Shown in pieces: positions 1,858-60,881 of a DNA stretch of 64,000 bases. Source of the stretch: an uncultured Elusimicrobia bacterium. Its GTDB lineage: Bacteria; Elusimicrobiota; Elusimicrobia; 2-01-FULL-59-12. Under the pieces are notes generated by a model. It saw nothing but the letters and a program-made list of their open reading frames with translations, was not told the origin of the DNA and did no database searches. The position numbers were made by a program, and so were the translations under genes. How positions within the stretch are numbered: the first letter of the stretch is position 1; every line of letters begins with the position of its first letter. Location of the stretch: the NCBI GenBank assembly GCA_963702895.1, contig OY969767.1:1568001-1632000 (forward strand). The letters run 5' to 3'.

Positions 1858-2163
1858 CCTCGAATCTTCTGTTGACGTCACCCCGGCGGATTGTTAGCCG
1901 GCCCTCCACACATCCGGCGGGCCGTCCGCCCTGCCGTGTGGCGGACGGGGTCTATTATCGACGTAAAAATATGATGGATCCGACACACTACGGTCGGACG
2001 CCTGTCGTCTGGCGTCCCCCCCCTTACCATCAGCCGATGCGTTACTGGCTGATGGCCATCGTCCTATAAAAATGGGATACGATAGCGGCCGGGGGGGATG
2101 ACGGCACTAAAAGGTGCGCCGGGTTGAGACGGAGAGAATTGGGCAAGTACAGGTTTCGGGCTA
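1855..2163. mobile_element. MITE/REP composite copy A with nested mini-hairpin inserts
   Basis: TA-ACCTCGAATCTTCTGTTGACGTCACCCCGG...GGGATGACGGCAC core shared with copies at 6401, 16807 and 20505. Confidence 0.7.
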
Positions 2164-6403: not shown

Positions 6404-6607
6404 CCGGGAATCCTCTGTTGGGTCGGTATTGTCGTCTGAGGTTAGTGGACTTTTTTGTGCCGTCATCCCGGCATGCCGTCAGCCGGGATCCATCATTTAC
6501 GTCGAAACGTGATAGACCCCGTCCGCCACACGGCAGGGCGGACGGTCCGCCGGAAGTCTGGAGGACCGGCTTTCGCCGGGGTGACATCAACAGATGATTC
6601 CGGGCTC
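6401..6607. mobile_element. MITE/REP composite copy B (reverse orientation)
   Basis: Imperfect terminal inverted repeats AGCCGGGAATCCTCTGTTG...CAACAGATGATTCCGGGCT; begins at the pldA stop codon. Confidence 0.7.
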
Positions 6608-16806: not shown

Positions 16807-16972
16807 TAACCCGGAATCTTCGTTTGACGTCACCCCGGCGGATTGTTAGCCGGGGTCTATCATCGACGTATAAAACATGATGGATCCCCCCCTAGGACCG
16901 GGGGGGATGACGGCACGAAAAAGTCCCGAATTCTCTGTCGACAAGTCATGTTCAACTGTATTCTTTTTGCTA
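16807..16972. mobile_element. MITE/REP composite copy C
   Basis: TA-flanked; same core as copies A, B and D; lacks the CCGCC doublet inserts. Confidence 0.7.
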
Positions 16973-20504: not shown

Positions 20505-20659
20505 TAACCGGGAATCTTCTGTTGACGTCACCCCGGTGAAAACCGGGGTCTATCATGTTTCGACGGAAATGATGGATCCCGGCCTTCGCCGGGATGACGG
20601 CATTAAAAAATCCCGAAGTCTCATTCGATAAGCGACATTCAACTGAACTTTTCCGGCTA
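20505..20659. mobile_element. MITE/REP composite copy D (minimal 155-bp form)
   Basis: TA-ACCGGGAATCTTCTGTTGA...TCAACTGAACTTTTCCGGC-TA enclosing CGTCACCCCGG..GGGATGACG hairpins. Confidence 0.72.
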
Positions 20660-25222: not shown

Positions 25223-25813
25223 ATGTCCTATATGAAACGAATTGCTCCCTTTCTAACGGTCGCCTTTTTCTTAAGCGGCTGCGCCTCCACGCAAATGCAG
25301 AAGGTGGAGCGGGCTCCCGGTTTTCAGAGCGCACAGATCCGAAAGGTCCTCGTCATTTCGGCTGCGAAAATGCCGGAGCGGCGACGCGCGATTGAGGAGG
25401 AATTTTCCAGCCAATGGAAGAAGCGAAAGGTGAATGCAGTCGCCAGCTACACCTTGATTCAGGACCTCTCCTCGCAAAACAAAGAGAGCGTCGCGACACT
25501 CGCACGAGAACAGCGCTTCGATAGCGTTCTGCTCGGGCAGTTGAAGAAGCGCGGCGAGATCACGCCTCAATATCCCAACCAGGCCCAGAAAGATAGCGCG
25601 GGGATGACGGAGGACATTCAGGTCACCATCGCCTCCCCGCAGGATCCGATCGATTTCGAAGCGGCGATCATCACGACCAAGCTCTACGATGTCGCAACAG
25701 AACAACTGCAATGGACCGGAGTGAGCCAAACCATCATCATCAGCGGAAATGTCCAAGATGTGTTCAAGCCGCTCGTGAAGACCATCCTCAAAAGCCTCTA
25801 CGAAAAGCCCTAG
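25223..25813 (+). CDS. Lipoprotein (DUF4136-like)
   Basis: Lipobox LSGC; RKVLVI, RR.IEE, TKLYD..LQW. Confidence 0.68.
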   Translation: MSYMKRIAPFLTVAFFLSGCASTQMQKVERAPGFQSAQIRKVLVISAAKMPERRRAIEEEFSSQWKKRKVNAVASYTLIQDLSSQNKESVATLAREQRFDSVLLGQLKKRGEITPQYPNQAQKDSAGMTEDIQVTIASPQDPIDFEAAIITTKLYDVATEQLQWTGVSQTIIISGNVQDVFKPLVKTILKSLYEKP

Positions 25814-25821
25814 TCAGTTGA

Positions 25822-26020
25822 AGTATCGGAGTATCGGAGTATCGGAGTGCCGGAGTAACGGCGTAACGGAGTATCGGCGGAACGGGGTATCGGAGTAATG
25901 GCGTAACGGAGTAATGGGGTATCGGAGTGCCGTGCGTGGGGAGGAACGGAGTACCGGTTCGTCGGTTTAGCTCAAAACAGCTTTTGTGCTGTTACTCCGA
26001 TACTCCGATACCCCGTTACT
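25822..26020. repeat. Octamer tandem repeat (GTATCGGA/GTAACGGA) with inverted arm
   Basis: About 13 octamers, then reverse-complement TACTCCGA copies, between convergent genes. Confidence 0.8.
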
Positions 26021-26029
26021 TCTATCGCG

Positions 26030-26686
26030 TTAACGGGCGGGCAAGAGCCCCGCGGAGGCGGCTTCTTCGACACAACGTTTGGCGATGAGTTTTTGGACTT
26101 TGCTGGTAGGCAAATCGTGAGGAATTTTCACGGGGACAGTGTTGTGCCACTGCAGATGGCCCGTCGACGTTCGGTAAACGCTCATGCCCACCTTCATCAT
26201 CTGGTAGCCCGTCTGACCGCTTGACCCAGGGATCGGCTGTCTCCCCGGGGCTCTGGGCATTGTTTCCACATACGTCTCTCCCTTCACGGGCTCGATGAGG
26301 ATCGGCTCTGCTCCCGGTGCCTGCGGAACGGCTTGGGATTTCAAAAAGTCTTCGAAAGAAGCAGGCGTCTTGCGGCTCGGCATTCGGATGTTTCGTTGCG
26401 TGCGCAGCACAAGGATAGAATCAAAAAGCTCTTTCTTTAATTGATTTTGTATCTCCGAGGGCTTCCAGGTCTTCTCAGACGGAAAGAGGGTCTCATAGGA
26501 AGCCGACTCCACTTGCCGGCCGGCCAGAAGCGCGCGCACTTCAAGCTCCGTATCACGGACGACTTTCGGGTCATTCCCTACGACCATGACCGCGACTTTC
26601 TGCAGCGGCCCGGAGTCATTCGAAACGGCTGCCCCCATGGGGCGGGCCAGAGCGCTGACCAGGATCAAAAGGAAGACCTTTTTCAT
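26030..26686 (-). CDS. Exported hypothetical protein (distant DUF4136-like)
   Basis: Signal peptide MKKVFLL; FDSILV, .Y..TG.LQW. Confidence 0.55.
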   Translation of the reverse strand: MKKVFLLILVSALARPMGAAVSNDSGPLQKVAVMVVGNDPKVVRDTELEVRALLAGRQVESASYETLFPSEKTWKPSEIQNQLKKELFDSILVLRTQRNIRMPSRKTPASFEDFLKSQAVPQAPGAEPILIEPVKGETYVETMPRAPGRQPIPGSSGQTGYQMMKVGMSVYRTSTGHLQWHNTVPVKIPHDLPTSKVQKLIAKRCVEEAASAGLLPAR

Positions 26687-30449: not shown

Positions 30450-30483
30450 AAAGGAAGATTGGCAAGAGAGATGACCGCAAAAA

Positions 30484-30576
30484 TGCAGAGAGCAGAGATG
30501 AAACAAGAGAGCTGTTTATCAAGCGGCCGACGCTTGGAGGCCGAGCGCATTTCTGCTCTCTGCTTTCTGCTCTGCC
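30484..30576. repeat. Heptamer inverted repeat (GCAGAGA/TCTCTGC)
   Basis: Same family at 33478-33570 and 54102-54136. Confidence 0.6.
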
Positions 30577-30582
30577 GTAAAA

Positions 30583-30732
30583 TGGTGGCAGGGGAGAGGA
30601 TCGTCCGCCACACAACAGGCGGACGCCCGACCGTCGTGTGTCGGGCGAACTCTCGACACCGAGCGCCACCACAACGCGGCGCTCGCCCGCCGGGCCCCAG
30701 TGGCGGGCGGTTTTTCAGTCCCGTCCACTCTA
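30583..30732 (-). pseudogene. Degenerate tRNA-Phe copy interrupted by two hairpin doublets
   Basis: Removing the inserts restores TGGTGGCAGGGGAGAGGATCGAACTCTCGACAC..GTTTTTCAG..CTCTA, matching the tRNA. Confidence 0.8.
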
Positions 30733-30806
30733 TAAGCGGCCTGAGGCCGCGTTCGATCGACGGGACAGCCCCGTCAATCACTGCATTTGCCGGGCGCGCT
30801 TAGATT

Positions 30807-31038
30807 TGGCAGGGGAGAGGATCGTCCGCCACACAACAGGCGGACGCCCGACCGTCGTGTGTCGGGCGAACTCTCGACTCATGATCTTCTGAACAGGACC
30901 ACGATCCTGCGCAAAGAAATGGTGGCAGGGGAGAGGATCGTCCGCCACACAACAGGCGGACGCCCGACCGTCGTGTGTCGGGCGAACTCTCGACTCATGA
31001 TCTTCTGAACAGGACCACGATCCTGCGCAAAGAAATGG
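30807..31038. repeat. Two tandem 116-bp repeats, each containing the tRNA-Phe 3' end with a T-loop insert
   Basis: TGGCAGGGGAGAGGATCG recurs at 30807, 30923 and 31039. Confidence 0.9.
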
Positions 31039-31110
31039 TGGCAGGGGAGAGGATCGAACTCTCGACACCTGGTTTTTCAGACCAGTGCTCTACCACTGAG
31101 CTACCCTGCC
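31036..31110 (-). tRNA. tRNA-Phe(GAA)
   Basis: GGCAGGGTAGCTCAGTGGTAGAGCACTGGTCT-GAA-AAACCAGGTGTCGAGAGTTCGATCCTCTCCCCTGCCACCA. Confidence 0.96.
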
Positions 31111-32405: not shown

Positions 32406-32588
32406 AAAGATTAGGTAGGTTCGCCGAGAGATTGAGCAGGTCCCTCGAAGATTAGGTAGGTTCCCCCAGAAAGATTAGGTAGGTTGGTGGAAAGATTAGG
32501 TAGGTTCGCCGGAAGATTGAGCAGCTCCCTCGAAGATTAGGTAGGTTGGTGGAAAAAGTGAGCAGGTTCCTCAAAGATTAGGTCGGTT
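32406..32588. repeat. Nine-copy ~21-bp direct repeat array (AGATTAGGTAGGTT / AGATTGAGCAGG)
   Basis: Cores at 32408, 32429, 32449, 32472, 32493, 32514, 32534, 32555 and 32575. Confidence 0.9.
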
Positions 32589-35246: not shown

Positions 35247-35374
35247 CGGCGCAGTCGACGCCCACGACTCCACCACGGCGGGCGTCCGCCGAGTCTAGAG
35301 TGGCGGACGGGATTTGCCGCCACGACGTCTTTGGCGGGCGCGCCAACGCCTCAGTGGCGCGGAACACGCGATCT
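35247..35374 (-). pseudogene. Degenerate tRNA-Asp 3'-half copy interrupted by two hairpin doublets
   Basis: After removing the inserts, 25 of 33 nt match the adjacent tRNA-Asp 3' end (counted by hand). Confidence 0.7.
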
Positions 35375-41101: not shown

Positions 41102-41235
41102 GGCGCTTGGGGGTGTTTTGTCGTGCGTAGCCCGCCATAGGGGAAGGGGGACCCGCCCGATGTCTGGCGGGGGGAACCGCGGGATGGTTCCCTTAGAGGG
41201 ACTGGCGGGCGGCACGACAAAACACCCCGGGCGCC
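41102..41235. repeat. Long nested palindrome downstream of purB
   Basis: GGCGCTTGGGGGTGTTTTGTCGTGC..GCCCGCCA / TGGCGGGC..GCACGACAAAACACCCCGGGCGCC. Confidence 0.75.
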
Positions 41236-42602: not shown

Positions 42603-42715
42603 CGTCATTCCGGCGGAAGCCGTCCGCCAGACGTCTGGCGGACTGTCCCTTCCTATGATCTCTAGGGATGGGGACGGAATCTATCATGATAGACCCCGGC
42701 TTTCGCCGGGGTGAC
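42603..42715. repeat. CGTC-type REP doublet with nested inserts (left of purN)
   Basis: Inverted near-identical copy at 43348-43465. Confidence 0.85.
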
Positions 42716-43347: not shown

Positions 43348-43465
43348 CGTCACCCCGGCGCACGCCGGGGTCCAGTCGATGTTCTGGATTCCGTCCCCAT
43401 CCCTAGAGATCATAGGAAGGGACAGTCCGCCAGACGTCTGGCGGACGGCTTTCGCCGGAATGACG
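43348..43465. repeat. CGTC-type REP doublet with nested inserts (right of purN)
   Basis: Reverse complement of 42603-42715. Confidence 0.85.
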
Positions 43466-57916: not shown

Positions 57917-58032
57917 CGTCAACCCGGCAGGTCGTCAGCCGGGACGCCACACAACAGGCGTCCGACCGCAGTGTGTCGGATCCATCATGATCGGTGCGTG
58001 ATGGGCCCCGGCTAACAAGCCGCCGGGGTGAG
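57917..58032. repeat. REP doublet with nested hairpin doublet
   Basis: GGGA-CGCCACACAACAGGCG-TCC-GACCGCAGTGTGTC-GGATCC. Confidence 0.75.
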
Positions 58033-60822: not shown

Positions 60823-60881
60823 ATGCCTCTCCTCCTCCGCCATTGTGCCGTTGGCGGACTCGCCAGCGACGTCGTGGCGAG

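Follow-up and report, generated by a model that had tools for sequence, protein, structure and literature searches.

The window analyzed here is a stretch of 64,000 nucleotides (C1:1568001-1632000) from an uncultured Elusimicrobia bacterium whose genome, G000, consists of one contig (2.72 Mb, 57% GC). It contains an intact tRNA-Phe gene and, downstream of it, copies of the tRNA 3' tail that carry pairs of short GC-rich hairpins arranged head-to-head, referred to below as doublets; further doublets lie in repetitive extragenic palindromic (REP) sequences, in a tRNA-Asp-like tail copy and between two genes (Table 1). A first-pass annotation, made from the letters of the window, had proposed that the doublets are copies of a non-autonomous, REPIN-like miniature element. 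Our evidence indicates that the doublet, a gene-less unit of 36-51 bases, is very probably a non-autonomous mobile element, and that it is precisely inserted, as had been proposed; filled and empty states occur both within G000 and between relatives.

Structure of the doublets

Each half of the element has a 4-bp stem, CGCC/GGCG (variants CGAC/GTCG and CTCC), to which most halves add a 2-bp arm of variable sequence in both strands (CC, TC, AG, GT, CG, CT, TG or GG). The family hairpin comes in two subfamilies: type A, with a loop of 8-9 nt and fixed A1, A3 and C7, and type B, with a loop of 10-11 nt that begins ACT and has a fixed C8. A family-specific census of G000 returned 140 head-to-head pairs. 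Of these, 127 have a closed joint. On three Markov nulls the same census returned 0, 2 and 1 head-to-head pairs and 0, 0 and 0 closed doublets, which is the enrichment over null sequence that the first-pass annotation had set as a test. The CG-hairpin-CG-hairpin-CG grammar that it had described was also in excess, with 76 loci in G000 where the three order-5 Markov nulls gave 4, 1 and 3, and the window holds 9 doublets versus 0 in 200/200 order-3 nulls. The census likewise bears out the inverted arrangement of the two units. Indeed, head-to-head polarity is strict. The census also gave 53 tandem and 7 tail-to-tail hits; 46 of the former and all 7 of the latter are double readings of the same doublets or copies in contact with one, and nested arrays hold at least 5 of the 7 remaining tandem hits. 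Each subfamily pairs only with its own kind, nearly without exception (126/127 closed doublets; AA 90, BB 36, AB 1).

In a filled site the left target is followed by core O, a hairpin between its arms, the reverse complement of O, a second hairpin between its arms, O again and the right target, where O stands for 0-4 target bases that are present on both flanks and reverse-complemented between the hairpins (the core rule). This parse fits 135/158 loosely called G000 copies, a set that includes false calls. We also examined type A copies of relatives and metagenome loci, 67 of them distinct, setting aside 8 with unpaired arms. Where arms were paired the rule was obeyed in 25/26 six-base joints (CG 17, CA/TG 7, GG 1), 8/10 five-base joints, 7/8 two-base joints and 1/2 three-base joints, and in 0/3 eight-base joints. 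A fixed CG repeat, as first envisaged, does not hold up, as the cores include none, C/G, CG, CA/TG, GA/TC, GG/CC and AG/CT.

Because the core is mirrored between the hairpins, the insert alone is predicted to fold into a fully paired dumbbell. By the same geometry, a filled strand annealed on an empty strand would form a four-way (Holliday) junction in which the O pairs could branch-migrate. The predicted geometry follows directly from the sequence; that such molecules exist is what we infer from it. The match between joint and target suggests that the element enters by way of a four-way DNA junction.

A strict type B pattern matched at least 124 metagenome stretches, corresponding to 119 distinct copies, 113 of which have both arms paired; it is these 113 listed copies to which the metagenome type B figures below refer. 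Their two halves differ at three or more positions in 113/113 cases, where approximately 9.6 closer pairs were expected, and within single genomes the minimum distance between halves is 3-5. This dissimilarity lowers the share of long cross-paired folds, which are predicted in 60/110 real doublets versus 76-96 for shuffled doublets; for the copy at 30602-30647 a two-hairpin fold is predicted on either strand (z -3.2 and -2.6). Two other ideas about the halves were abandoned: polar left and right ends, since in 27/110 pairs the commonest loop type is absent from both halves, and a coding constraint on the loops, since there is a stop in the suggestive frame of the commonest half.

Evidence for mobility

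G000 contains more than 100 clean insertions and the element is also found in distant relatives. The comparison of filled and empty orthologous sites, proposed earlier as a check, was made at the dcd-guaB junction in our family set (11 genomes including G000; G001, G002 and so on denote related genomes and L numbers denote loci). The site is filled in 2/11 genomes, G000 and G001, at the same base and with different arms and loops. There is no doublet in the other 9, and in 4 of these the stop codon abuts the Shine-Dalgarno motif. As the G003 site is empty despite its GuaB being nearer to that of G000 (91-94%) than is the GuaB of G001 (85%), the site appears to have been hit twice or lost once, a reading that rests on one gene and not a tree. 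Five relatives share only about 70% DNA identity in genes with G000 and are thus too distant for strain-level polymorphism.

Strict type A copies were found in 5/10 family genomes and 0/30 outside the family, and strict type B copies in 6/10 family genomes. Across the phylum, type B occurs in 12/401 genomes, including families of other classes, with up to 21 copies (controls 0); the element is therefore present in at least two classes of Elusimicrobiota. A strict doublet pattern run against GTDB gave 34 loci, of which 28 are titled Elusimicrobiota and the remaining 6 lack closed joints. Viral contigs gave 0 matches with two strict patterns and no match was found in the plasmids searched. A loose-pattern survey of 301 phylum genomes was dropped as counts outside the family were at control level.

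Insertion sites

The 123 well-parsed G000 copies fall into 46 target classes, with roughly 45 copies at three REP positions that probably derive from few events amplified with the REP. None of the 158 loosely called doublets lies inside a called tRNA gene, and 33/48 tRNA genes have a doublet within 700 nt. Among the tRNA tail copies scored in G000, 22 were filled and 0 empty; relatives do have empty tails. Empty sites had also been reported within the window and these hold up: the T-loop of the intact tRNA-Phe is an exact empty site and two REPs are empty as well (Table 1). The 30660 site is not a clean empty/filled pair because the empty site reconstructed from it is shorter by one base than the real tRNA-Phe. 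Genome-wide, 95/127 reconstructed 22-nt empty sites recur in G000 at no more than 2 mismatches; this is a raw count, uncorrected by a null, and many of the targets are multi-copy repeats.

The target consensus of the metagenome type B copies is a two-sided TTY^RAA dyad. In 56/113 sites each side is matched at 2 or more of its 3 positions, and the full TTY is present on 36% of sides versus 5% in flanks; blunt and CG/CA-core copies center on the same T-loop dyad. The first-pass annotation had placed all copies in stem-loop sequences and envisaged targeting of single-stranded DNA hairpins. The two-sided dyad does not support such targeting, and 22/113 copies lie immediately 5' of a Shine-Dalgarno motif, which the GA arm faces in 16/22. 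Given that other copies sit in frame within long open reading frames (ORFs), the target is not confined to stem-loops. Further targets include c-di-GMP riboswitch-like regions and the inside of other doublets.

Several individual sites are worth recording. Two 45-nt doublets (G000 C1:1099384 and 1102486) lie in frame in one ORF of 2625 aa. At tRNA-Asn (C1:1813100-1814030, L007) there is a full upstream copy with three doublets. A long GATA microsatellite adjoins tRNA-Ala (C1:1700710-1700830).

Copies and related hairpins in the window

All clear doublets named by the first-pass annotation were confirmed (marked "named" in Table 1) and one further copy, that beside guaB, had been overlooked. 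The copy at 35316-35361 had been described as repeating a single G, of which there is no trace. The two other presumed variants, at REP feet, are indeed doublets; their core is GA/TC and additional arm bases are lacking. The hairpins flanking purN do include a family hairpin; the partner is a different, longer hairpin rather than a second family member.

Table 1. Doublets, empty sites and related features in the window
Feature	Position	Strand	Target or remark
Type A doublet, CG core, arms TC/GA + CC/GG (named)	30602..30647		T-loop of tRNA-Phe 3' tail copy
Type B doublet, CG core, arms AG/CT + CC/GG (named)	30660..30709		Between variable loop and anticodon stem, same tail copy
Type C, single long-armed hairpin between two CAG words	30716..30768		Anticodon of same tail copy
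Type A doublet in first 116-bp repeat, 30807-30922 (named)	30823..30868		Identical to 30602-30647
Type A doublet in second 116-bp repeat, 30923-31038 (named)	30939..30984		Identical to 30602-30647
Intact tRNA-Phe	31036..31110	-	T-loop is exact empty site
Type B doublet, CG core, left stem degenerate (named)	35259..35309		tRNA-Asp-like tail copy
Type B doublet, blunt (no core), one mutated arm base	35316..35361		T-loop of same tRNA-Asp-like copy
Type A doublet (named)	1899..1947		3' arm of CGTC-type REP
Minimal 36-nt type A doublet, TC/GA core, no extra arm bases	1979..2016		Foot of a REP
Type A doublet (named)	6520..6568		3' arm of minus-strand REP
Empty REP (first-pass copy C)	16828..16857	+	No doublet
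Empty REP (first-pass copy D)	20526..20550	+	No doublet
Hybrid: self-symmetric family hairpin + type C arm, CG outside, CTG joint	42621..42676		REP beside purN
Inverted copy of 42621-42676 hybrid	43392..43447		Other side of purN
Minimal 36-nt type A doublet, GA/TC core	57943..57980		Foot of REP between purC and guaA
Blunt type B doublet	60836..60881		Between dcd stop codon and guaB Shine-Dalgarno motif

Another hybrid, of a family hairpin and a purine-rich hairpin, lies at 41131-41172 within another dispersed repeat, and octamer/heptamer tandem repeats form convergent inverted pairs at 25811-26030, 32406-32588 and 30480-30575. Type C is also seen in parts of the purN hybrids (42643-42676 and 43392-43426) and elsewhere in G000 (C1:220788, 974511, 2338420, 2582779 and 2590185), with CTG/CAG joints and, as partner, a family hairpin or a REP-like arm; at L065 two type C arms and three CTG words lie in a tRNA-Phe D-loop copy. 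A variant with a bulged A at the stem foot of both halves is present in four genomes (G000 C1:1963958 and 2047405; L015, L040, L395). A longer-loop relative of type B has nine copies in G000 (C1:290386, 481180, 503379-503455, 510950, 1565167, 2368527 and 2535435), some with the CAAG tail of type B singles. At six G000 sites (C1:93191, 709601, 1891743, 2153130, 2274531 and 2466370) single, often self-symmetric family hairpins lie inside other dispersed repeats, presumably replacing the repeat's usual small hairpin. Long REP loops in G000 carry the GNNGT word of element loops (30/47 distinct loops), hinting at a common binder or origin.

Candidate enzymes

The first-pass annotation had advised looking for RAYT/HUH (Y1), GIY-YIG or IS110 enzymes flanked by the same hairpin. 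For Y1 and IS110 no such gene was found: of 32 Y1 matches in the 11 family genomes, 20 loci were examined and the hairpin flanked 0 of them (near two there is a single hairpin, at a distance), and the two IS110 groups inspected in G000 have other ends, so that no cognate IS110-family transposase sharing the element's ends was seen among them. Y1 genes occur in 10/11 family genomes, including doublet-free ones, and the Y1 of G000 is an 84-aa remnant only. IS110 (PF02371) was not found in the carriers G001, G006, G007 and G008. One of the IS110 groups targets the REP; five identical elements of IS110 type occupy one REP stem position in G000 (C1:90476, 152479, 445382, 504687 and 1715409) and three of these REPs also have a doublet.

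Group II intron reverse transcriptases (RTs) number three in G000 and were found in G003, which has no doublets by strict patterns; none was found in the doublet carriers G001, G002, G006 and G007, whose assemblies are incomplete. Ku was found in 1/11 family genomes and not in G000. A CRISPR origin was rejected as G000 has no Cas1 and no array, Cas1 being present in 2/11 family genomes. Four tyrosine recombinases in G000 were also rejected; the pair that was inspected look phage-like or small, and the hairpin does not border them consistently. Genes between single hairpins in G000 look, by inspection, like toxin-antitoxin or DUF1016-type genes and include no recombinase.

GIY-YIG genes are found in 11/11 family genomes, with 9 in G000, 4-7 in the other carriers and 2 in three of four non-carriers; G056 has 7 without a strict doublet (there is one type B half in a tRNA tail). 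Small GIY-YIG genes recur beside filled tRNA tails, and in other genomes the tRNA-linked GIY-YIG gene is the only recurring mobile-type gene among doublet neighbors. Downstream of the tRNA-Asn at L007 there are two units of a small GIY-YIG gene plus filled tail. The GIY-YIG enzyme SsnA is described as cutting upstream of its hairpin (PMC11893778). The Ssn motif places the cut upstream of a CGTC hairpin in single-stranded DNA, whereas the doublets are in the 3' arm or foot of such hairpins.

Model for movement and alternatives

We favor a model, to which we assign a probability of about 0.45, wherein the element is a dumbbell circle inserted by single strand exchange and its halves are reshuffled by conversion or nesting. 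The element would leave as a single-stranded circle folded as a dumbbell, a protein supplied in trans would read the CGCC/GGCG stems and the loop (A.AC..C) at both ends, and the circle would be joined into one of the two strands of a duplex, at a dyad resembling TTY^RAA. The junction would be blunt or have a 1-2-base core matching the target, either chosen by pairing or refilled from the target, and replication would then fix the insertion in one daughter, as happens for the single-strand insertions of integron cassettes and CTX phage. Copies would survive where an insertion is tolerated (in tRNA tail copies, REPs, spacers, riboswitch helices and in-frame protein loops), and the difference between the two halves may be maintained to prevent the unit from turning into one long palindrome.

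Our reasons for favoring the dumbbell are: (i) the core rule; (ii) strict polarity; (iii) pairing of each subfamily with its own kind; (iv) a form with a five-base joint that has a G/C core in 8/8 rule-obeying cases and AG+TC arms in 7/8, at unrelated targets; and (v) a doublet found in identical form at three targets that are unrelated (L198, L231 and L245). Other signs that the doublet travels whole are L400 (G007), which is one base from the 30602-30647 copy and lies at another tRNA, and an excess of near-identical metagenome type B doublets (38 pairs within 2 differences versus 14-16 with shuffled halves). The two-sided target match, the dissimilarity of the halves and the filled/empty orthologous site also speak for the model.

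A number of observations weigh against this model. The metagenome copies include 110/113 distinct half pairs, and one half can have 10 partners among them and up to 8 in G000. Linkage of halves within genomes is not significant in G071 (5 pairs within 2 differences versus 2.5, P 0.09) and shows no excess in G059, G001 and G002; G000 has 3 such pairs versus 0.36. The excess across metagenomes may reflect the organisms' common pool of halves. The core follows the target and not the arm lineage, given that the 7 cases of the CA/TG core include 6 different arm pairs. There are also hybrids whose arms are unrelated, and a single long hairpin is still the predicted fold in 60/110 doublets. To our knowledge the variable core length of 0-4 fits no fixed-geometry recombinase. 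Lastly, no mobilizer was found among Y1/RAYT, IS110, RT, Ku and Cas1, none of which tracks the carriers; this absence is weak evidence because most genomes compared are incomplete.

Several of these observations would be expected if the doublet were instead a fresh scar of two-ended capture. In that scenario, nuclease cleavage of the dyad would leave blunt ends or a short 3' overhang O, a separate hairpin would be added to each 3' end, which would fold back to copy O, and the ends would rejoin through O and its complement. A core that follows the target, halves with many partners and only weakly linked within genomes, and hybrids with type C arms would all fit, as would the finding that arms are unrelated to flanks in 39-41/41 classes with left and right arms unlinked (P 0.16). 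We nonetheless favor the dumbbell unit and consider capture unlikely, since separate addition of hairpins leaves unexplained why A-A and B-B pairing accounts for 126/127 doublets and why the five-base form and the identical trio look like lineages; repair of a chromosome break would also be needed every time, and Ku was found in only one of the 11 family genomes, G000 not being that one. Quite unlikely, in our view, is peel-and-paste on single-stranded DNA by a Y1/HUH transposase with the middle core guiding both cleavage sites, which is the REPIN-like line of the first-pass annotation. Consistent with it are the inverted doublet of hairpins, its blunt insertion on the 3' side of a TTC-like word and the wide occurrence of Y1 genes in the family, and a 'clover' fold has been proposed for RAYT recognition (PMC3116915), but the target is two-sided, there is no spacer or tag, and the Y1 genes show neither flanking hairpins nor restriction to genomes with doublets, that of G000 being a remnant.

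It is improbable that there is no active mobility, that is, that old GC-rich hairpins spread with host repeats and were reshaped by gene conversion or template switching, or are kept as RNA structures. This would account for the copies carried by few REP variants (about 45), for loops that vary at constant sites, for the GNNGT word in REP loops and for the GA arm that ends 16/22 of the Shine-Dalgarno-adjacent copies, but is difficult to reconcile with 46 target classes in G000, precise insertion in unique and AT-rich DNA, nested copies and patchy presence across classes. Similarly improbable is RNA-mediated copying by a group II intron RT jumping onto processed hairpin RNAs. Such a route was put forward for the elements of Allomyces (PMC2800124) and G000 has three such RTs, but RT genes and doublets do not coincide among the relatives (in assemblies that are incomplete), and strict polarity and the inverted core would be left unexplained.

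Going beyond the dumbbell model itself, we offer as a tentative proposal, more doubtful than not, that a protein-free, covalently closed dumbbell of 36-50 nt represents a new class of mobile DNA that integrates by a single strand exchange into a Holliday junction, with the central 0-2 bp selecting the target and an unrecognized or housekeeping enzyme acting on it, and that this design is common to mitochondrial double-hairpin elements (DHEs). How gene-less double-hairpin elements move has been an open question since they were described in fungal mitochondria; it is now testable because hundreds of copies with variable joints give a core rule that predicts a dumbbell/Holliday-junction intermediate. 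If it is true that the central base pairs choose the target, the element would be among the smallest known transposable units and a possible route to scarless or programmable insertion chemistry. The lineage's tRNA tails, riboswitches and protein loops look disrupted, for which the element also accounts.

Relation to known systems

The element is apparently undescribed and its mechanism may be new. That it belongs to no recognized named family, as first noted, is in keeping with an Rfam search of the window, which returned tRNAs only and no double-hairpin element, and with the lack of a match among the REP families in the available text of PMC3733652. No matching element was seen in the portions of PMC2700814, PMC5910586 and PMC3184786 that were accessible, and the literature searched, which covered few subscription papers and in which the supplements to PMC3733652 and PMC11893778 could list relatives, has no description of the element or of the inverted-core rule.

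Save for the shared inverted layout, the element lacks the features we tested of REPs, REPINs and miniature inverted-repeat transposable elements (MITEs) of the DDE type. GTAG/CGTC REPs have a terminal tag on a single palindrome, whereas the element's halves start with a variable 2-nt arm and CGCC; the CGTC-type REP is here a target of the element and the tag belongs to this host REP. The earlier comparison with REPINs stands insofar as two inverted palindromes form the unit (127 closed head-to-head pairs) that is non-autonomous and extragenic (PMC3116915, PMC3733652). REPINs, however, have a spacing of 71-110 bp, fold as one long hairpin and are found beside RAYT genes (PMC3116915). The element has no such spacer, its joint being only 2-8 nt, and no GTAG/CGTC tag; its halves are less alike than chance, the long fold is rarer than in shuffles (if still predicted for 60/110), and no RAYT gene is flanked by the same repeat (0/20 Y1 loci). 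As in DDE-type MITEs there are terminal inverted repeats, the halves being inverted repeats of each other, but the duplication in MITEs is of fixed length and their interior independent of the target, while that of the element is 0-4 nt and mirrored inside. Set beside non-autonomous IS200/IS605 derivatives, for which a one-sided target word, no duplication and dissimilar left and right ends would be expected, the element gives a mixed picture: its blunt form lacks a duplication, but its target is two-sided and its ends are not polar. Cyanobacterial small dispersed repeats are mobile repeats of 20-30 nt that insert precisely into other repeats, as single units.

The terminal repeats of tyrT/tyrV in E. 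coli (rttR region, L057) offer an analogy only: they too are copies of a tRNA 3' tail that carry an insert of several hairpins at the same T-loop position, but the hairpin sequences are different, the insert is longer and nested, and the joints have extra bases. TRIP1 was rejected as the E. coli analogue as it is a different repeat from the tyrT/tyrV terminal repeats, as far as the available text of PMC10888264 indicates.

Nearest in shape, by our comparison, appear to be the mitochondrial DHEs and the GC clusters of yeast mitochondria. The latter are palindromic GC-rich insertions of about 42 nt with a 2-3-nt flanking repeat, among which merger and shuffling of units occur (PMC4478555). Their repeat is fixed (AG or ACT) and the accessible text describes no complement in the middle, whereas the core of our element is variable and mirrored inside. 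Fungal mitochondrial DHEs are short, GC-rich, gene-less units of two hairpins found in spacers and rRNA genes and thought to be mobile by a mechanism reported as unknown (PMC10085805, PMC2800124); those of Allomyces lack a flanking duplication (PMC2800124, PMC10085805). DHEs are organellar, and neither an inverted-core rule nor head-to-head loop polarity is described for them in the text available to us. The likeness, drawn from description and not from sequence, is one of shape: like DHEs, the element consists of two adjacent GC-rich hairpins, is dispersed and is very probably mobile.
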